A DNA stretch of 64,000 nucleotides, from the NCBI GenBank assembly GCA_051294905.1, contig CM119371.1, positions 20,400,001-20,464,000 on the forward strand, given 5' to 3'. The DNA comes from Botryllus schlosseri (Eukaryota). Shown here piece after piece: positions 25,964 through 60,221 of the stretch. How positions within the stretch are numbered: the first letter of the stretch is position 1; every line of letters starts with the position of its first letter. A program made the position numbers and the translations under genes. Below the pieces are notes generated by a model. That model was not told the DNA's origin, did not search any database, and worked only from the letters and a program-made list of their open reading frames with translations.

Positions 25964-26820
25964 AGTAGTGTAGCTGGTATCGTTATACGCAGACCAATCA
26001 CAGAAGGCCACGTCGCCTTAATTGCCACGCCTATATGACACCCATTGTCACGCCTACAGGATGCCCATTGCCAAGTCACCTGCCAGTGCCACATCGTGTG
26101 TATTTATGAGCAAATTTCATTGTTTTGTGAATTTCAATACCGGTTTTCCATGTATATTTAGCAATATGTATTGAATAACTTGAAATGTATCATCACTAAT
26201 TAATTAATATAAAATGCGATTTTAAGCGCTGCGACTTGAAAATATTAATATAATAACTTACTTTTTTGGATATAAATAACATTCAGATTACACATAAATT
26301 TCGAAAACTATGATGTCAATAGAATACTATAGTTGTCAGATATTCACAGATAACACTCATCAACGTTGAACTAGGTGCGGGGTTCTATGATGATATATCA
26401 AAATTCTACACATCATCACTAATTAATTAATTCATATAAAATGCGATTTTGAGCGCAGACAGATCGCGGTTTCGATTGCCGAGGTCTCCGCATTTCATGA
26501 CCTAATATGAACGCACACTACAATTGAATTCATTCCAATACCTGCAAATTTACTTTGCATGTCGAGTATAAGGATAATTTAATCAGCGCTAAACGCCAGC
26601 GGACTAGCCGTAGGCGCACAATTCTCGGCGTTACAATTAAACAAACTTTTCGCGGCAGGTACGCGATTCCTAACGGTTTCTACAGTTTCCACATTTCACG
26701 ACTTATTTTCTTTGGACGCATACAAGCGATTCCCAAGGTCGAGGCTATGGAAACAAATCAAGCATGAGTACGTAAATCTTGAGCTTAGATCTCCGAGATT
26801 CTTGTATGCAACTAACATTA
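25964..26820 (+). repeat. Left TIR, outer 857 bp
   Basis: Reverse complement of 59365-60221; no mismatch seen in spot checks; match ends at ACTAACATTA (26811-26820). Confidence 0.96.
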
Positions 26821-26841
26821 TAGACAACCATTCGACAATAT

Positions 26842-27183
26842 TCAACCAGCAATAATGTTTTCGATATAGTGCATCATGAACAGCGACACGCCGATCAATT
26901 CAAATTCAACAATGGGATCCCCCCGCACAATTATGAAGCCCGATTTGCGTTGAATATTAACGATACCAACAAATCGGAAGATCTCTTTTCCCCCTACATC
27001 TATGATAGAGGTACCATTCCATTGACCACGAATAACTTGAGATTCTGTGGGATCGAAATCGCAATCAAATAATATGAGAGTATCTTTTCCAGCTTTCAGA
27101 ACTTGGACAATCGTGTCAGGACTATATCGCAACACCGCAGTATGTGTGCGTACAAAACGATACACAGTTATTTTTAGCGCCAT
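26842..27183 (-). CDS. Hypothetical 113-aa protein (left-arm copy)
   Basis: ATG-started, protein-like beta-rich ORF; identical mirror copy at 41167-41508. Confidence 0.5.
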   Translation of the reverse strand: MALKITVYRFVRTHTAVLRYSPDTIVQVLKAGKDTLILFDCDFDPTESQVIRGQWNGTSIIDVGGKEIFRFVGIVNIQRKSGFIIVRGDPIVEFELIGVSLFMMHYIENIIAG

Positions 27184-28855
27184 CCGTACGACTTATGTTC
27201 AACTTGCAGTGCAACTGACGATTTAAAGACGGTAATATCTTTTTCGAGTGCGACAATGGCACTCGTAAAGGTTATACAAACATTACCTTAAACTACTATT
27301 TACTTCATTGCAGAATTGATCGAAGTTACGATTGCAGCTGAAAAGAGTAAAGAGGTGAAAGCTAGTGATGATGACCTAACAATTACTGCTTGGAGCTGTC
27401 TATCCTTATTAAGGTACTTGGTAAGAACGTGGTAAAGCCATTGAACAGCAATTTTACACTCGCGGTTTTATTGTTATATATTAAAATTATACGTACATTT
27501 CGCGCGATCAACTACGCATGATTTTATGTGAATTTCACCGATAGTGTCCGAGTTCTATGTGACATAAGTACAATTTCAGCATCGGTATTTGCAATAAAGC
27601 CTAAAAATTAGAGTTGCACCTTTTCGCGATTTATGCAGCTATTCGCGCAGATTTGCGTTAATGAAAAAAGTAAAAATTATGTACTCAAGTAGGTTGATAG
27701 GTTGATGTAGCAGAGTGCAAAACGGGTTAATATACCTGCTACCGATATTACCCCATTAACAAGTTATACAGGTGTAGCCAACACCGCAATCGCACGGATT
27801 TGGCTTTTATGATAAGTAAACATATGAAGTCAAGATTGACCCCGTACGCCTGCTAGATATTTACATCAGAAAACGAGGTTGTAGCTTGCGTTGCGTGTTT
27901 TGATTTCTAAGCAGGTCGGTATGGCAAAAATTGGTATTATGTATCTTGATGTATAGTTAGTTACATCCTGTGTGATCTTGGGTCTCATTATCCATGATAT
28001 TGTCGCCAATTAAATTCGGCGAGTAACGTAGTGGCAGCCTACGCCCCACAGCTGTAACACCAATGGATCCGTCGGCGATTTGACATTTCTATTGCTATAT
28101 GGCACATTAATCATTATATTCAAGTTGTCATTGATCTGTTCCAATAGTCGAAGGTAATAACGCTGATTTAATTTGACTTTGGTGATGACATGATTAATAG
28201 CCTAGTTATCAGGAGTATGGCTAAAACCCGGATTAGGCTGTACCGCTCCAATGCTATGATCTCAGGTCAATATTTGTCAAATTCTATAATATTAGACCTA
28301 TAATTGTGGCTCGTCAACTGTCCGCTAGCTGCAAAATTATAACGCAACAGTTTTCGCGATATCGTGATGCATTTCTACTCTCGAATGGTGTTTGACAAAC
28401 TATGCCAAGTAGGCTATCAACTTGTACTTGTATTCGTACTTTACCTTTACACGTCGTTTTTGTATAATGGATACTAATTTTATAAAAAAATAAACAAAAA
28501 GCGCGAAAAATTACATTTTATCCCGGAACGTAGCAAGAAAAAGCGTATAAATTTTGTAAAGTAGATAGAAAACTACACTATTCCGATGCACTGAAGACTC
28601 TTACACTCTGGATTTTGTGCAGTATATACTAATTTTACATTGCGGAGTATTCCATAAACGTTAATCCAGTGATCCTTCTTCTATTTTCAATCACGATCCG
28701 CTTATTATTCTAGGCTTCGAAGCCCACACCCAGTACGTTTTATGAGGATTAATATTTTTAGATTAAATATAGCGTATCGAGACTTCGTGAAAGTTACTTG
28801 GAAATAGTTATTTCTACCCTAATTTAATAGATTTCTCAGATATCGTTACAATGGA

Positions 28856-28938
28856 ACTGGGTTGAGCGAGCGGTAGAGGCGTTGGACTTAAGTTTCAATG
28901 AACAGGTGTTCACGTGGGTTCGAACCCCACACCCAGTA
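28856..28938 (+). tRNA. tRNA-Leu(UAA), left-arm copy
   Basis: Acceptor ACTGGGT/ACCCAGT, anticodon loop CT-TAA-GT, long variable arm TGAAC/GTTCA, T-arm GTGGG-TTCGAAC-CCCAC, discriminator A, TTTT downstream. Confidence 0.88.
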
Positions 28939-29395
28939 CGTTTTACGGGGATTAACATTTTTTAGATTCAAATAAAGCGTATCGAGTACTTTTTCTCAAC
29001 TGTAATAAAAACTTTTAGACTTCGGATTTTGTGTAGTAGGCTATATACTAATTTACAATACCGCATTTGTAATTCGTGCAAGTACAGGAATATCATAGTT
29101 CTTGTAACAAAGTTGTCTGCGCACAATATATGTTAATCATAAGTCCTACACATTCATGATTTCGTCCTAGTTTGAGTTTTAGAAAATATTATACCGACAT
29201 CGCGGCATCTTTTAAAAACAAAACCATGATCAATGGTCGAGAGATCATTTTTGCTATTTTTCATTGACATAAGTCATTCTGGAACGCGAAAACGCATTGT
29301 ACGATATAGATGAAAATTAAGCAAATCCTAGGATCCTCATTTTCAAAGTAGCTTAGATCTCGAAATAAGCTTTGACTCGCTATTCTCCTCAAACC

Positions 29396-58154: not shown

Positions 58155-58226
58155 GGTAATTTAATTGCTCAGCCCTGTAGAGCAGCTTTGTACTTATAAG
58201 CAGGTCACTCAAGTTTAGTACTCTCC
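58155..58226 (+). pseudogene. Decayed tRNA-Ala-like relic
   Basis: Shares GCTCAGC, GTAGAGCAGCT, AAGCAG, GGTCAC and GTACTCTCC in order with the tRNA at 42643; B box destroyed. Confidence 0.55.
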
Positions 58227-58554
58227 GTAGAGGTTATTGCACAATCTATCTCCAATATGCTGCAATACAGACAGGTTCAGACGTGTCTATTCACTTCCGT
58301 CGAGTGACTTTTATAACACATTTTACACAATCACATGAGCAGTTTATTAATAACCAACAAGCACATTTACTAATCGTTCAGAACAAGGCGTAGAGCTTCT
58401 TTGAGATCTTGGCACACTTTCTTGATATCAGAATCCTTTTTTTGATTTGCGATGTAAAAGCAATAACAGTTTCGCATAGATGAGCATATGATTACGAATA
58501 TACCGATATTGAAGTCTTCTGAGAGCATCTTCACTAGTCCGCGCAATTCTCCTC

Positions 58555-58839
58555 TTAGTACGTTATGTCTTTCAGAGCATTTGAATTGCTATTCGAAGGT
58601 ATCTGACAGCTGTGAACTAATTCTTCAAGTTTGTTCATCGTAGCGTAACGACCATTTTTACGAATCCATAACTGTATCATTTGATATCGTTGCTCAGTTA
58701 AGTTATAGCAATCCATGTATTGACATTCGGCAATTTCATTGTCAGATAGCTCAAGTTTTTCACGTGCAAACCTATACCAGTTCATCAGGTCAATTCGATC
58801 CATTATGACGTATATATCATTAGCAGTAATCTTTGACAT
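58555..58839 (-). CDS. Death-domain-only protein, about 94 aa
   Basis: W.RFAR.L.LSDNEI.E...NLTEQRYQMIQLW..KNG..AT...L pattern of FADD/Fas-type death domains. Confidence 0.88.
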   Translation of the reverse strand: MSKITANDIYVIMDRIDLMNWYRFAREKLELSDNEIAECQYMDCYNLTEQRYQMIQLWIRKNGRYATMNKLEELVHSCQIPSNSNSNALKDITY

Positions 58840-58934
58840 ATTCAATCTACAACATACAGCGAATAATCATGTAATAAATATTACACGTTATATATTACCT
58901 TGCACTTGCTTCAACTGCAAAGGCAATCAACGCA

Positions 58935-59195
58935 ATATTAACGTAATCATATCTCGGTGTTACTAAAGTAATCAACTACACATATGACGTAATCATGAAC
59001 ATGCTTCAACTACACAATCGTATTAACGTATTTCTCAGTGTTATTGGACTGGAACTAGACGCAATCATGACGTAATATCTGAGCATTACTGGAATTAAGC
59101 AAAGCCACTCTCGTAATAACTAAAGTAATCGCATGTGACGTAATCATGCTGCAATACGCAATTGAAGGTAATCAACTTACGCAATGACGTAATAA
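58935..59195. promoter_or_regulatory. Subterminal cluster of TGACGTAA (CRE/ATF-like) repeats
   Basis: TGACGTAAT at about 58985, 59068, 59136 and 59185 within longer imperfect repeats. Confidence 0.55.
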
Positions 59196-60221
59196 ATATC
59201 TCAGCGTTACTGGACTGGAACTATGCCATCTCTCGCACAACCAAAACCTCTCTCGTATTGGAACCACACCCACATTGTTCTGCGTTCTGATTGGCTAACA
59301 GATGTCACGTGATCAAATACTCGACGCTGATTGGAGGGGGTATAAACCCTGTGTATAATACTACTAATGTTAGTTGCATACAAGAATCTCGGAGATCTAA
59401 GCTCAAGATTTACGTACTCATGCTTGATTTGTTTCCATAGCCTCGACCTTGGGAATCGCTTGTATGCGTCCAAAGAAAATAAGTCGTGAAATGTGGAAAC
59501 TGTAGAAACCGTTAGGAATCGCGTACCTGCCGCGAAAAGTTTGTTTAATTGTAACGCCGAGAATTGTGCGCCTACGGCTAGTCCGCTGGCGTTTAGCGCT
59601 GATTAAATTATCCTTATACTCGACATGCAAAGTAAATTTGCAGGTATTGGAATGAATTCAATTGTAGTGTGCGTTCATATTAGGTCATGAAATGCGGAGA
59701 CCTCGGCAATCGAAACCGCGATCTGTCTGCGCTCAAAATCGCATTTTATATGAATTAATTAATTAGTGATGATGTGTAGAATTTTGATATATCATCATAG
59801 AACCCCGCACCTAGTTCAACGTTGATGAGTGTTATCTGTGAATATCTGACAACTATAGTATTCTATTGACATCATAGTTTTCGAAATTTATGTGTAATCT
59901 GAATGTTATTTATATCCAAAAAAGTAAGTTATTATATTAATATTTTCAAGTCGCAGCGCTTAAAATCGCATTTTATATTAATTAATTAGTGATGATACAT
60001 TTCAAGTTATTCAATACATATTGCTAAATATACATGGAAAACCGGTATTGAAATTCACAAAACAATGAAATTTGCTCATAAATACACACGATGTGGCACT
60101 GGCAGGTGACTTGGCAATGGGCATCCTGTAGGCGTGACAATGGGTGTCATATAGGCGTGGCAATTAAGGCGACGTGGCCTTCTGTGATTGGTCTGCGTAT
60201 AACGATACCAGCTACACTACT
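59137..60221 (-). repeat. Right TIR, uninterrupted, 1,085 bp
   Basis: Equals the reverse complement of 25964-26820 joined to 41538-41765. Confidence 0.95.

Follow-up and report, generated by a model that had tools for sequence, protein, structure and literature searches.

The segment at positions 25964-60221 of the window analysed here (64,000 nucleotides (nt) of Botryllus schlosseri, contig CM119371.1, positions 20,400,001 to 20,464,000) raises the question whether it is a single, large virus-like element armed against host cell death, as proposed in a reading made from the sequence only (hereafter the sequence-only reading), or more than one mobile element. This 34-kb segment consists of two nested mobile elements, an inner Polinton (Maverick) lying inside an outer palindromic element of satellite type. 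We assign a probability of about 0.8 to the joint reading that a Polinton with conserved death-blocking cargo is nested in an older palindromic element moved in trans, and that the cargo protects the host cell. Within it, the structure is close to certain, the proposed function of the cargo is plausible, and a viral stage is possible in view of the gene content.

The outer boundaries are as previously described. Perfect inverted repeats of 857 nt (25964-26820 versus 59365-60221, by repeat search) give the segment AGTAGT...ACTACT ends, and a perfect 6-bp target-site duplication, GGCAGT, was read directly just outside them at 25958-25963 and 60222-60227. A second set of termini is found inside. 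Position 41537 opens with AGTAGTATTATAC and position 59365 closes with GTATAATACTACT, and the target-site duplication AATGTT abuts both ends externally (41531-41536 and 59366-59371). The terminal inverted repeats of this inner element, ∼236 nt long and 97% alike, occupy 41537-41772 and 59130-59365; in the repeat search they appeared as an extension of the outer repeat, at 97%, between 41530-41772 and 59130-59372. The inner autonomous Polinton/Maverick therefore spans 41537-59365 (17,829 bp). The left part of the outer element (25964-41536), which contains both arms of the palindrome, extends from its terminus, AGTAGTGTAGC, up to the site of the AATGTT insertion, while the right part (59366-60221) is the right terminal repeat, separated from the remainder by the inner insertion. 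The insertion point is the inner edge of this right terminal repeat.

An outer-type copy on contig C17, 99.8-99.9% identical to the outer element of the window, represents the empty site: it reads ...GGTTGTCTAT AATGTT AGTTGCATAC..., with AATGTT once only. The inner termini, their own AATGTT duplication and this empty site establish the nesting of two elements. The same inner termini were found in six out of six other inner-type copies examined at both ends, in unrelated flanks and with duplications of their own (CTCGAC, GTTTTG, ACCAGT, GGTTTC, TCGGTT and TACGTA). Hardly any credence can thus be given to the alternative that 25964-60221 in its entirety forms a single intact Polinton virus of 34 kb with three Bcl-2 genes, a leucine-rich-repeat (LRR) gene and five tRNAs. 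The perfect 857-nt repeats and GGCAGT on both sides do enclose everything, and movement of the entire composite by way of its outer ends is conceivable; however, a second full set of termini with its duplication lies inside, all six sibling Polintons end at the inner termini, ten out of ten outer-type elements stand alone without core genes, the site is empty on C17, and a 34-kb genome would be roughly double the size of its siblings (17.8 kb). Perfect terminal repeats with a perfect duplication are no proof of a single element. A microhomology (TTAGT) join of palindrome and Polinton at the 26820/41530 break was also considered and was dropped in view of AATGTT on both sides and the empty site. 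The inner Polinton integrated into an older resident element by means of its retroviral-type integrase, making the 6-bp duplication.

The replication and virion genes described in the sequence-only reading are present, as judged by Pfam, relatives and structure models, and they are located in the inner element, which is a structurally complete, autonomous, adintovirus-like Polinton/Maverick whose modules are all open frames. Like animal Polintons and adintoviruses, it has a DNA polymerase of family B that is protein-primed (PolB), an rve integrase, an A32-like ATPase, a double-jelly-roll capsid protein, a penton protein and, as a candidate, an adenain-like protease, all encoded here on the minus strand. 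PolB (50672-54601, 1309 amino acids (aa)) has 145 relatives at E ≤ 1e-10, with 33-53% identity among the 120 relatives listed, and many of them carry a precomputed PF03175 assignment; the frame itself gave no direct Pfam or PDB match, and its polymerase motifs were read by eye. The retroviral-type integrase with a chromodomain (48149-49162) matched Pfam rve (E 2e-13) and Chromo (E 6e-10), and the A32-like genome-packaging ATPase (50047-50778) matched Pox_A32 (E 1e-9). The capsid proteins were assigned from structure models, with model confidence given as pLDDT. The double-jelly-roll major capsid protein (44751-46028, 425 aa; pLDDT 71.5) matched the major capsid proteins of Sputnik (E 2.5e-15), an iridovirus, Paramecium bursaria chlorella virus 1 (PBCV-1) and mavirus, with E values between 1e-15 and 1e-13; one of its seven sequence relatives is labelled major capsid protein by a source. 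The penton (minor capsid) protein (47171-47992, 273 aa; pLDDT 93), with 1100 relatives at E ≤ 0.001, matched the mavirus penton (E 1.2e-7) and also the Sputnik penton and the adenovirus penton base. The frame at 44302-44754 (150 aa) is a candidate adenain/Ulp1-like cysteine protease: it had no Pfam match, and its sole structure match, a weak one, was pS273R of African swine fever virus (ASFV; E 0.0026), with His and Cys blocks aligned.

Terminal inverted repeats, a 6-bp target duplication and (AGT)2 ends are all found in this element. In the account of Barreat and Katzourakis (2021, PMC8097293), vertebrate Mavericks have a PolB-ATPase module followed by integrase, penton, capsid and protease, with flanking accessory regions and (AGT)2//(ACT)2 ends, and the gene order and end motif of the inner element fit that description. 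Near-identical Polinton sequence was also detected in sequencing runs: 16 runs, carrying three organism labels, hold at least half of the sampled 31-mers of 41400-51399 (all 20 matching run rows come from 10 studies), so that such sequence is not limited to one sample or label.

The two accessory regions of the inner Polinton contain one Bcl-2 homologue, a UBE2D-like ubiquitin-conjugating enzyme (E2), a BIR-only protein, a death-domain-only (DD) protein and three tRNA genes. All four protein types had been named in the sequence-only reading and all were recovered by Pfam; the pooling of three Bcl-2 copies, the LRR gene and two of the tRNAs into one gene set for the whole segment did not survive. 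Three Bcl-2 matches do exist, two of which are the identical palindrome arms of the outer element and one of which belongs to the Polinton. Likewise, five tRNA genes were found (ARAGORN, Rfam), two weak tRNA-Leu genes in the outer element and three in the Polinton.

In the left accessory region, all on the plus strand, the Polinton Bcl-2 homologue (41779-42282, 167 aa; Pfam Bcl-2 E 7.6e-20) has NWG and NGGW motifs in BH1 and BH2, identified by eye, and stops just past BH2, without a C-terminal membrane anchor; its nearest solved structures are the anti-apoptotic members BCL2L10, Mcl-1 and Bcl-2. It is followed by a 125-aa open reading frame (ORF) with no assigned function that is kept in siblings (42242-42619), tRNA-Ala(TGC) (42643-42715, Rfam 64 bits), the E2 (42784-43254; Pfam UQ_con E 1.9e-48), which aligns over its full length with UBE2D1 (E 9e-46) with the HPN motif and catalytic Cys in register, and tRNA-Pro(TGG) (43440-43512, 60 bits). 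The right region carries, on the plus strand, tRNA-Leu(TAA) (56599-56682, 58 bits), the BIR-only protein (57044-57430, 128 aa; Pfam BIR E 7e-11), with intact zinc ligands CX2CX16HX6C and the NAIP and XIAP BIRs as nearest relatives, and a conserved 183-aa ORF with no assigned function (57467-58018), for which an atlas search gave no match. The latter lies between the BIR gene and the DD gene, which is on the minus strand (58555-58839, 94 aa; Pfam Death E 2.6e-11, no other domain).

Is this cargo a peculiarity of one copy? Genome searches scored part of the candidates in the 495.5-Mb assembly, so that all copy counts given here are lower bounds. The left accessory region, from Bcl-2 to tRNA-Pro, matches at least 10 other loci over at least 2590 of 2756 nt, at 93-98% (best 40 of 630 candidates), and the right one, from tRNA-Leu to DD, matches at least 6 loci full-length at 98% (best 40 of 618 candidates). 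With the window's own copy included, open E2 frames number at least 9 with an aa identity of 99-100%, with 2 more rows at 94%; open BIR frames number at least 8 at ≥90%, and open PolB frames at least 12 at 91-100% (best 35 of 354 candidates). At least 6-11 sibling copies contain the cargo with its frames open, a check that the sequence-only reading had recommended.

A second recommended check was the ratio of non-synonymous to synonymous substitution rates (dN/dS), calculated by pairwise Nei-Gojobori comparison of the window with the sibling copies retrieved. Values for the cargo were mostly 0.03-0.4: E2, 0.09-0.31 (0.13 versus the second family described below, where dS is saturated); BIR, 0-0.15; DD, 0.03-0.21; 183-aa ORF, 0.17-0.28; Polinton Bcl-2, 0.27-0.54; and 125-aa ORF, 0.15-0.59. 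Most comparisons are below 1, and the higher values are considered below. Finally, a second Polinton family, with a PolB 65-67% identical (at least 10 rows among the best 35 of 354 candidates), carries E2 (∼65%), BIR (∼55%), a homologue of the 183-aa ORF and DD (∼54%) with order and orientation unchanged, for example at C16:14428600, 14437283, 14444280 and 14445975; the TAG within the second-family DD is its natural stop codon. Open frames in siblings, dN/dS mostly below 1 and the second-family order together indicate that, as far as sequence comparison goes, the cargo is neither private to the window copy nor neutral. Absence from other copies and neutral evolution were the outcomes that the sequence-only reading had named as contrary to it, and neither was found.

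Outside Polinton-type copies, the closest relative of the DD protein in this genome is the N-terminus of a 569-aa frame at C8:2400837-2402546 containing Death and Peptidase_C14 domains, with 45 of 75 residues identical (60%) in an alignment that starts from the first Met of both. A word-index search with the DD-only protein gave one relative, 95% identical. The likeness suggests that the DD-only gene derives from the prodomain of a caspase, captured by the element, and makes it a candidate caspase-recruitment decoy. Death-fold decoys include viral FLIPs, built on the death effector domain (DED), and CARD-only and pyrin-only proteins, such as the caspase-1-derived COPs and the poxviral POPs. 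Like them, the Polinton DD is a single death-fold domain resembling a caspase recruitment domain, with binding and inhibition as predictions; unlike them, its fold is that of the death domain proper and not DED, CARD or pyrin domain. To our knowledge, no viral death-fold decoy of death-domain caspases has been described, and a literature search found no paper joining Polinton with death domain. In Hydra, a DD-caspase has been reported to be recruited by FADD (bioRxiv 10.1101/2019.12.13.875351, in excerpt). If the DD is a captured prodomain, the decoy strategy, familiar from DED, CARD and pyrin domains, would also cover death domains and DD-caspases of the cnidarian type. At C8:2.35-2.40 Mb, intronless frames of ∼520-570 aa form a tandem cluster; the frame inspected there combines a death domain at its N-terminus with a caspase domain and is, outside Polintons, the sequence closest to the DD-only gene.

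The outer element (∼16 kb) is non-autonomous and has (AGT)2 ends and a 6-bp duplication like a Polinton. ORF and Pfam scans of the window revealed no replication, integration or virion genes in it, and it must therefore be moved in trans. It contains a near-perfect palindrome of 14.7 kb (left arm 26806-34320, right arm 34366-41544, 45-nt centre 34321-34365), whose arms are complementary at 100% over 5544, 1134 and 389 nt and at 97% over 134 nt. The arms carry a 113-aa ORF with no assigned function (26842-27183, minus; mirror 41167-41508, plus), a weak tRNA-Leu(TAA)-like gene (28856-28939, plus; mirror 39411-39494, minus; ARAGORN, Rfam 36 bits) and the Bcl-2 homologue of the outer element, of 174 aa (29396-29920, plus; identical mirror 38430-38954, minus; Pfam E 4.5e-22). 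The LRR-only protein of the sequence-only reading corresponds to an intron-bearing gene of about seven exon-like frames (30790-33432, minus; mirror ∼35254-37560, plus), which is part of the outer element. Its LRR identity is weak: sub-threshold LRR_1/LRR_6 matches were obtained in three of nine frames, and LxxLDLSxN-type motifs were seen by eye.

Arms that are 100% identical over kilobases around a 45-nt centre form a pattern that fold-back reads can produce, and an assembly artefact, for instance a fold-back chimeric read, might accordingly account for the palindrome and for where it joins the Polinton. We regard this as very unlikely. A SINE-like (short interspersed nuclear element) insertion (32350-32668, plus strand), flanked by its own 12-nt duplication CTTCGAGAGGCT and with a few mismatches adjoining, is present in the left arm only, which argues against assembly fold-back; it separates exon-like frames of the LRR-like gene and is 92% related to 23991-24120. 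Moreover, the junctions have clean 6-bp duplications, palindromes of this kind recur at ten other loci where the duplications and flanks differ, and the 45-nt centre shows no evident resemblance to the SMRTbell adapter sequence and was rejected as a missed sequencing adapter. The C17 palindrome (C17:1260154-1275152) lacks, relative to the window, 1.09 kb beside the centre in its right arm, so that the fold point differs among near-identical copies.

The palindromic element is one of a family. The 857-nt repeat gave 980 candidates in the assembly, and among the best 40 scored most form inverted pairs 12-22 kb apart. Ten such pairs were examined; five further long pairs (15.5-21.9 kb apart) fall outside this set. 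PolB, integrase, ATPase, capsid, E2, BIR and DD genes were found in none of the ten, whereas the 113-aa ORF is present in all of them, Bcl-2 in five and an LRR-like fragment in three. Nine have AGTAGT ends and 6-bp duplications, the termini of the tenth lying outside the stretch that was read. All ten have inverted arms, of 1.8-7.9 kb and 98.9-100% identity, and element lengths range from 12.1 to 17.2 kb versus 17.8 kb for the Polinton. Across the assembly, 138 of the 150 scored matches to the outer-type Bcl-2 (≥75% aa identity; 419 candidates) are free of stops, as are 78 of the 87 matches to the DD gene (≥84% identity), and most matches to either gene lie in inverted pairs. One DD-bearing palindrome, seen in an 8-kb stretch with its termini beyond it, holds two intact 95-aa DD genes in arms 99-100% identical. 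As the palindromes have multiplied Bcl-2 and DD genes to three-figure copies, some of the reported expansion of apoptosis genes in invertebrates may be mobile cargo.

How did the palindromes arise? In defective adenovirus genomes and in hairpin or palindromic derivatives of linear plasmids, one protein-primed end is inverted-duplicated, giving two valid ends at near-genome length. The outer palindromes resemble these in both respects, and the inverted duplication of one end is seen as long inverted arms in the window and in all ten copies; unlike them, they are germline-integrated with 6-bp duplications, contain intact cellular-type genes and form a large family, with packaging and replication as predictions. 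By this analogy, the palindromes most likely arose when a linear, protein-primed genome had one end extended, either by copy-back or on a panhandle template, and they have since spread their own Bcl-2 and death-domain genes through the genome. Foldback (FB-type) transposons, whose arms consist of short tandem repeats and which lack genes, are like the outer palindromes in being mostly long inverted arms and in moving non-autonomously; by contrast, the outer arms are unique sequence with ORFs, and their ends and duplications are of the Polinton type.

The near-genome length of the palindromes is a weak argument hinting at packaging by a helper. A tentative extension, which we think more probably wrong than right, is that Polinton viruses have the palindromes as their copy-back defective or satellite genomes, which would be replicated, packaged and integrated in trans and carry Bcl-2, DD or LRR genes of their own. 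If this were true, the genome would record a virus-and-satellite system, including a death-domain caspase decoy, that seeded the germline with well over 100 intact Bcl-2 and DD-only genes.

A third Polinton family was also observed, with a PolB 61% identical (at least 13 rows, 11 open) and an adjoining 211-aa BIR gene (for example C1:23799380-23805703 and C4:15224817-15231134). Elsewhere this BIR gene adjoins Bcl-2 genes of 77-81% identity, so that the third family may be the source of the palindromic elements.

What would the cargo do? In the reading that we prefer, it would keep the host cell alive while the Polinton replicates. Bcl-2 would block the mitochondrial death route, the BIR protein would bind caspases or antagonists of inhibitor of apoptosis proteins (IAPs), the E2 might feed or divert RING-ligase signalling, and the DD decoy would keep death-domain caspases from recruitment by FADD-type adaptors. 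Death would thereby be suppressed at three levels during replication: mitochondrial, caspase/IAP and adaptor. Such an anti-death function is plausible from the predicted proteins. A complete Polinton with a conserved, multi-layer death module would offer a system for testing virus-like behaviour in its host.

The same genes could instead serve the host or the non-autonomous elements, as domesticated death regulators or amplified passengers, with no need for an infectious stage. Most Bcl-2 and DD copies do reside in non-autonomous palindromes, purifying selection is silent on who benefits, and a viral stage is suggested by gene content. Yet the order of the cargo is kept in autonomous elements of two families, beside intact capsid, penton, candidate protease and ATPase genes; and the non-autonomous elements are near genome length (12.1-17.2 versus 17.8 kb), as packaging would predict, a weak argument. 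We consider this alternative unlikely.

Several observations weigh against the joint reading of a nested Polinton with protective cargo. The inner terminal repeats are only 97% alike. The Polinton Bcl-2 reached a dN/dS of 0.90 versus the most divergent sibling, the 113-aa ORF of the outer element gave 0.7-1.5 among close copies, and dN/dS between integrated copies blends two components, selection while the lineage was active and neutral decay once a copy had inserted. A Pfam scan of the 128-aa BIR protein found no RING or other further domain, which sets it apart from canonical IAP ligases. The DD matched the solved domains of TNFR1, RIPK1 and FADD weakly (E ∼1e-4 to 1e-3), and the paralogues of the DD-caspase, which lack introns and lie in tandem, could therefore be of mobile origin themselves. 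Both the action of the cargo and an infectious stage are argued from the genes, and the copy-back origin from analogy.

How much of this is new? ASFV, a cytoplasmic virus of 170-190 kb, encodes a Bcl-2 homologue (A179L), a single-BIR IAP (A224L) and an E2 (I215L). As in ASFV, Bcl-2, BIR and E2 occur together in the Polinton, and the sole solved match of its candidate protease is pS273R; unlike ASFV, the Polinton is germline-integrated and carries a candidate DD decoy, and the likeness is one of gene kinds that does not imply that the cargo shares an origin. For elements of this type, homologues of Bcl-2 and IAP are already known, having been reported in adintoviruses by Starrett et al. 2021 (PMC8502044, excerpted text). 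Together with the flanking accessory regions described as usual in PMC8097293 (also in excerpt), this makes the premise of the sequence-only reading, that Polintons have a compact core gene set, outdated. The Bcl-2-like and BIR motifs mentioned in the excerpt of PMC6431247 concern planarian Burro retroelements. Relative to the published adintoviruses, the inner element adds a DD-only gene, a UBE2D-like E2 and three high-scoring tRNAs, with the qualification that the supplementary figures of PMC8502044 may show more overlap; its cargo is ordered alike in families that differ by 33% in PolB, and the copy in the window sits inside a palindromic, non-autonomous relative. A literature search on Polinton and Bcl-2 returned no paper evidently about Polinton cargo, as judged from the listing, and one on Polinton, palindrome and non-autonomous returned none on the subject by title. 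The candidate DD decoy, the E2, the cross-family conservation of the cargo, the palindromic cargo-bearing family and the nested structure thus appear to be new.

The remaining frames of the inner Polinton, all on the minus strand, are two 105-aa ORFs with no assigned function (43567-43884 and 43998-44315); a basic 122-aa ORF and a 249-aa ORF of the virion module (46079-47174), with no Pfam match; open frames of 153 and 107 aa (49153-50011); and, upstream of PolB, open frames of 134 and 410 aa (54585-56305). Mutual comparison of the 105-, 113- and 125-aa ORFs revealed no significant similarity.

E2 and BIR genes also occur together elsewhere. At 20 loci or more (for example C3:29438025-29440989 and C7:24865708-24868729), a frame of ∼581 aa that includes a BIR lies ∼2.5 kb from an E2-like frame (56-58% identical), a pairing that resembles another mobile family built on these two kinds of domain. 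A cluster of about 25 intronless E2-like frames, which share 55-71% identity with the Polinton E2 and may be of host or mobile origin, occupies part of one chromosome arm at C1:34.12-34.49 Mb.

Some variation is seen at the element ends and flanks. The 20-30 nt following AGTAGT vary among outer-type copies (window 25964-25995), while the 857-nt repeat is otherwise 97-99% identical; copies of the inner type are likewise variable beyond the first 15 nt. The 10-nt left flank in the window (25954-25963, TAGAGGCAGT) is nearly the same as that of a copy on contig C16 (TAGAGGCACT), with a similar flank on C17; either a preferred target or a repeat common to the insertion sites might explain this. A direct repeat of ∼0.9 kb, 82-95% identical, flanks the segment in the window (23081-23976 and 61359-62282), its copies being ∼4 kb apart once the insertion is subtracted, and a tandem array of ∼200-220-nt units lies in the window flank, with 21741-22687 recorded alongside these flank repeats.

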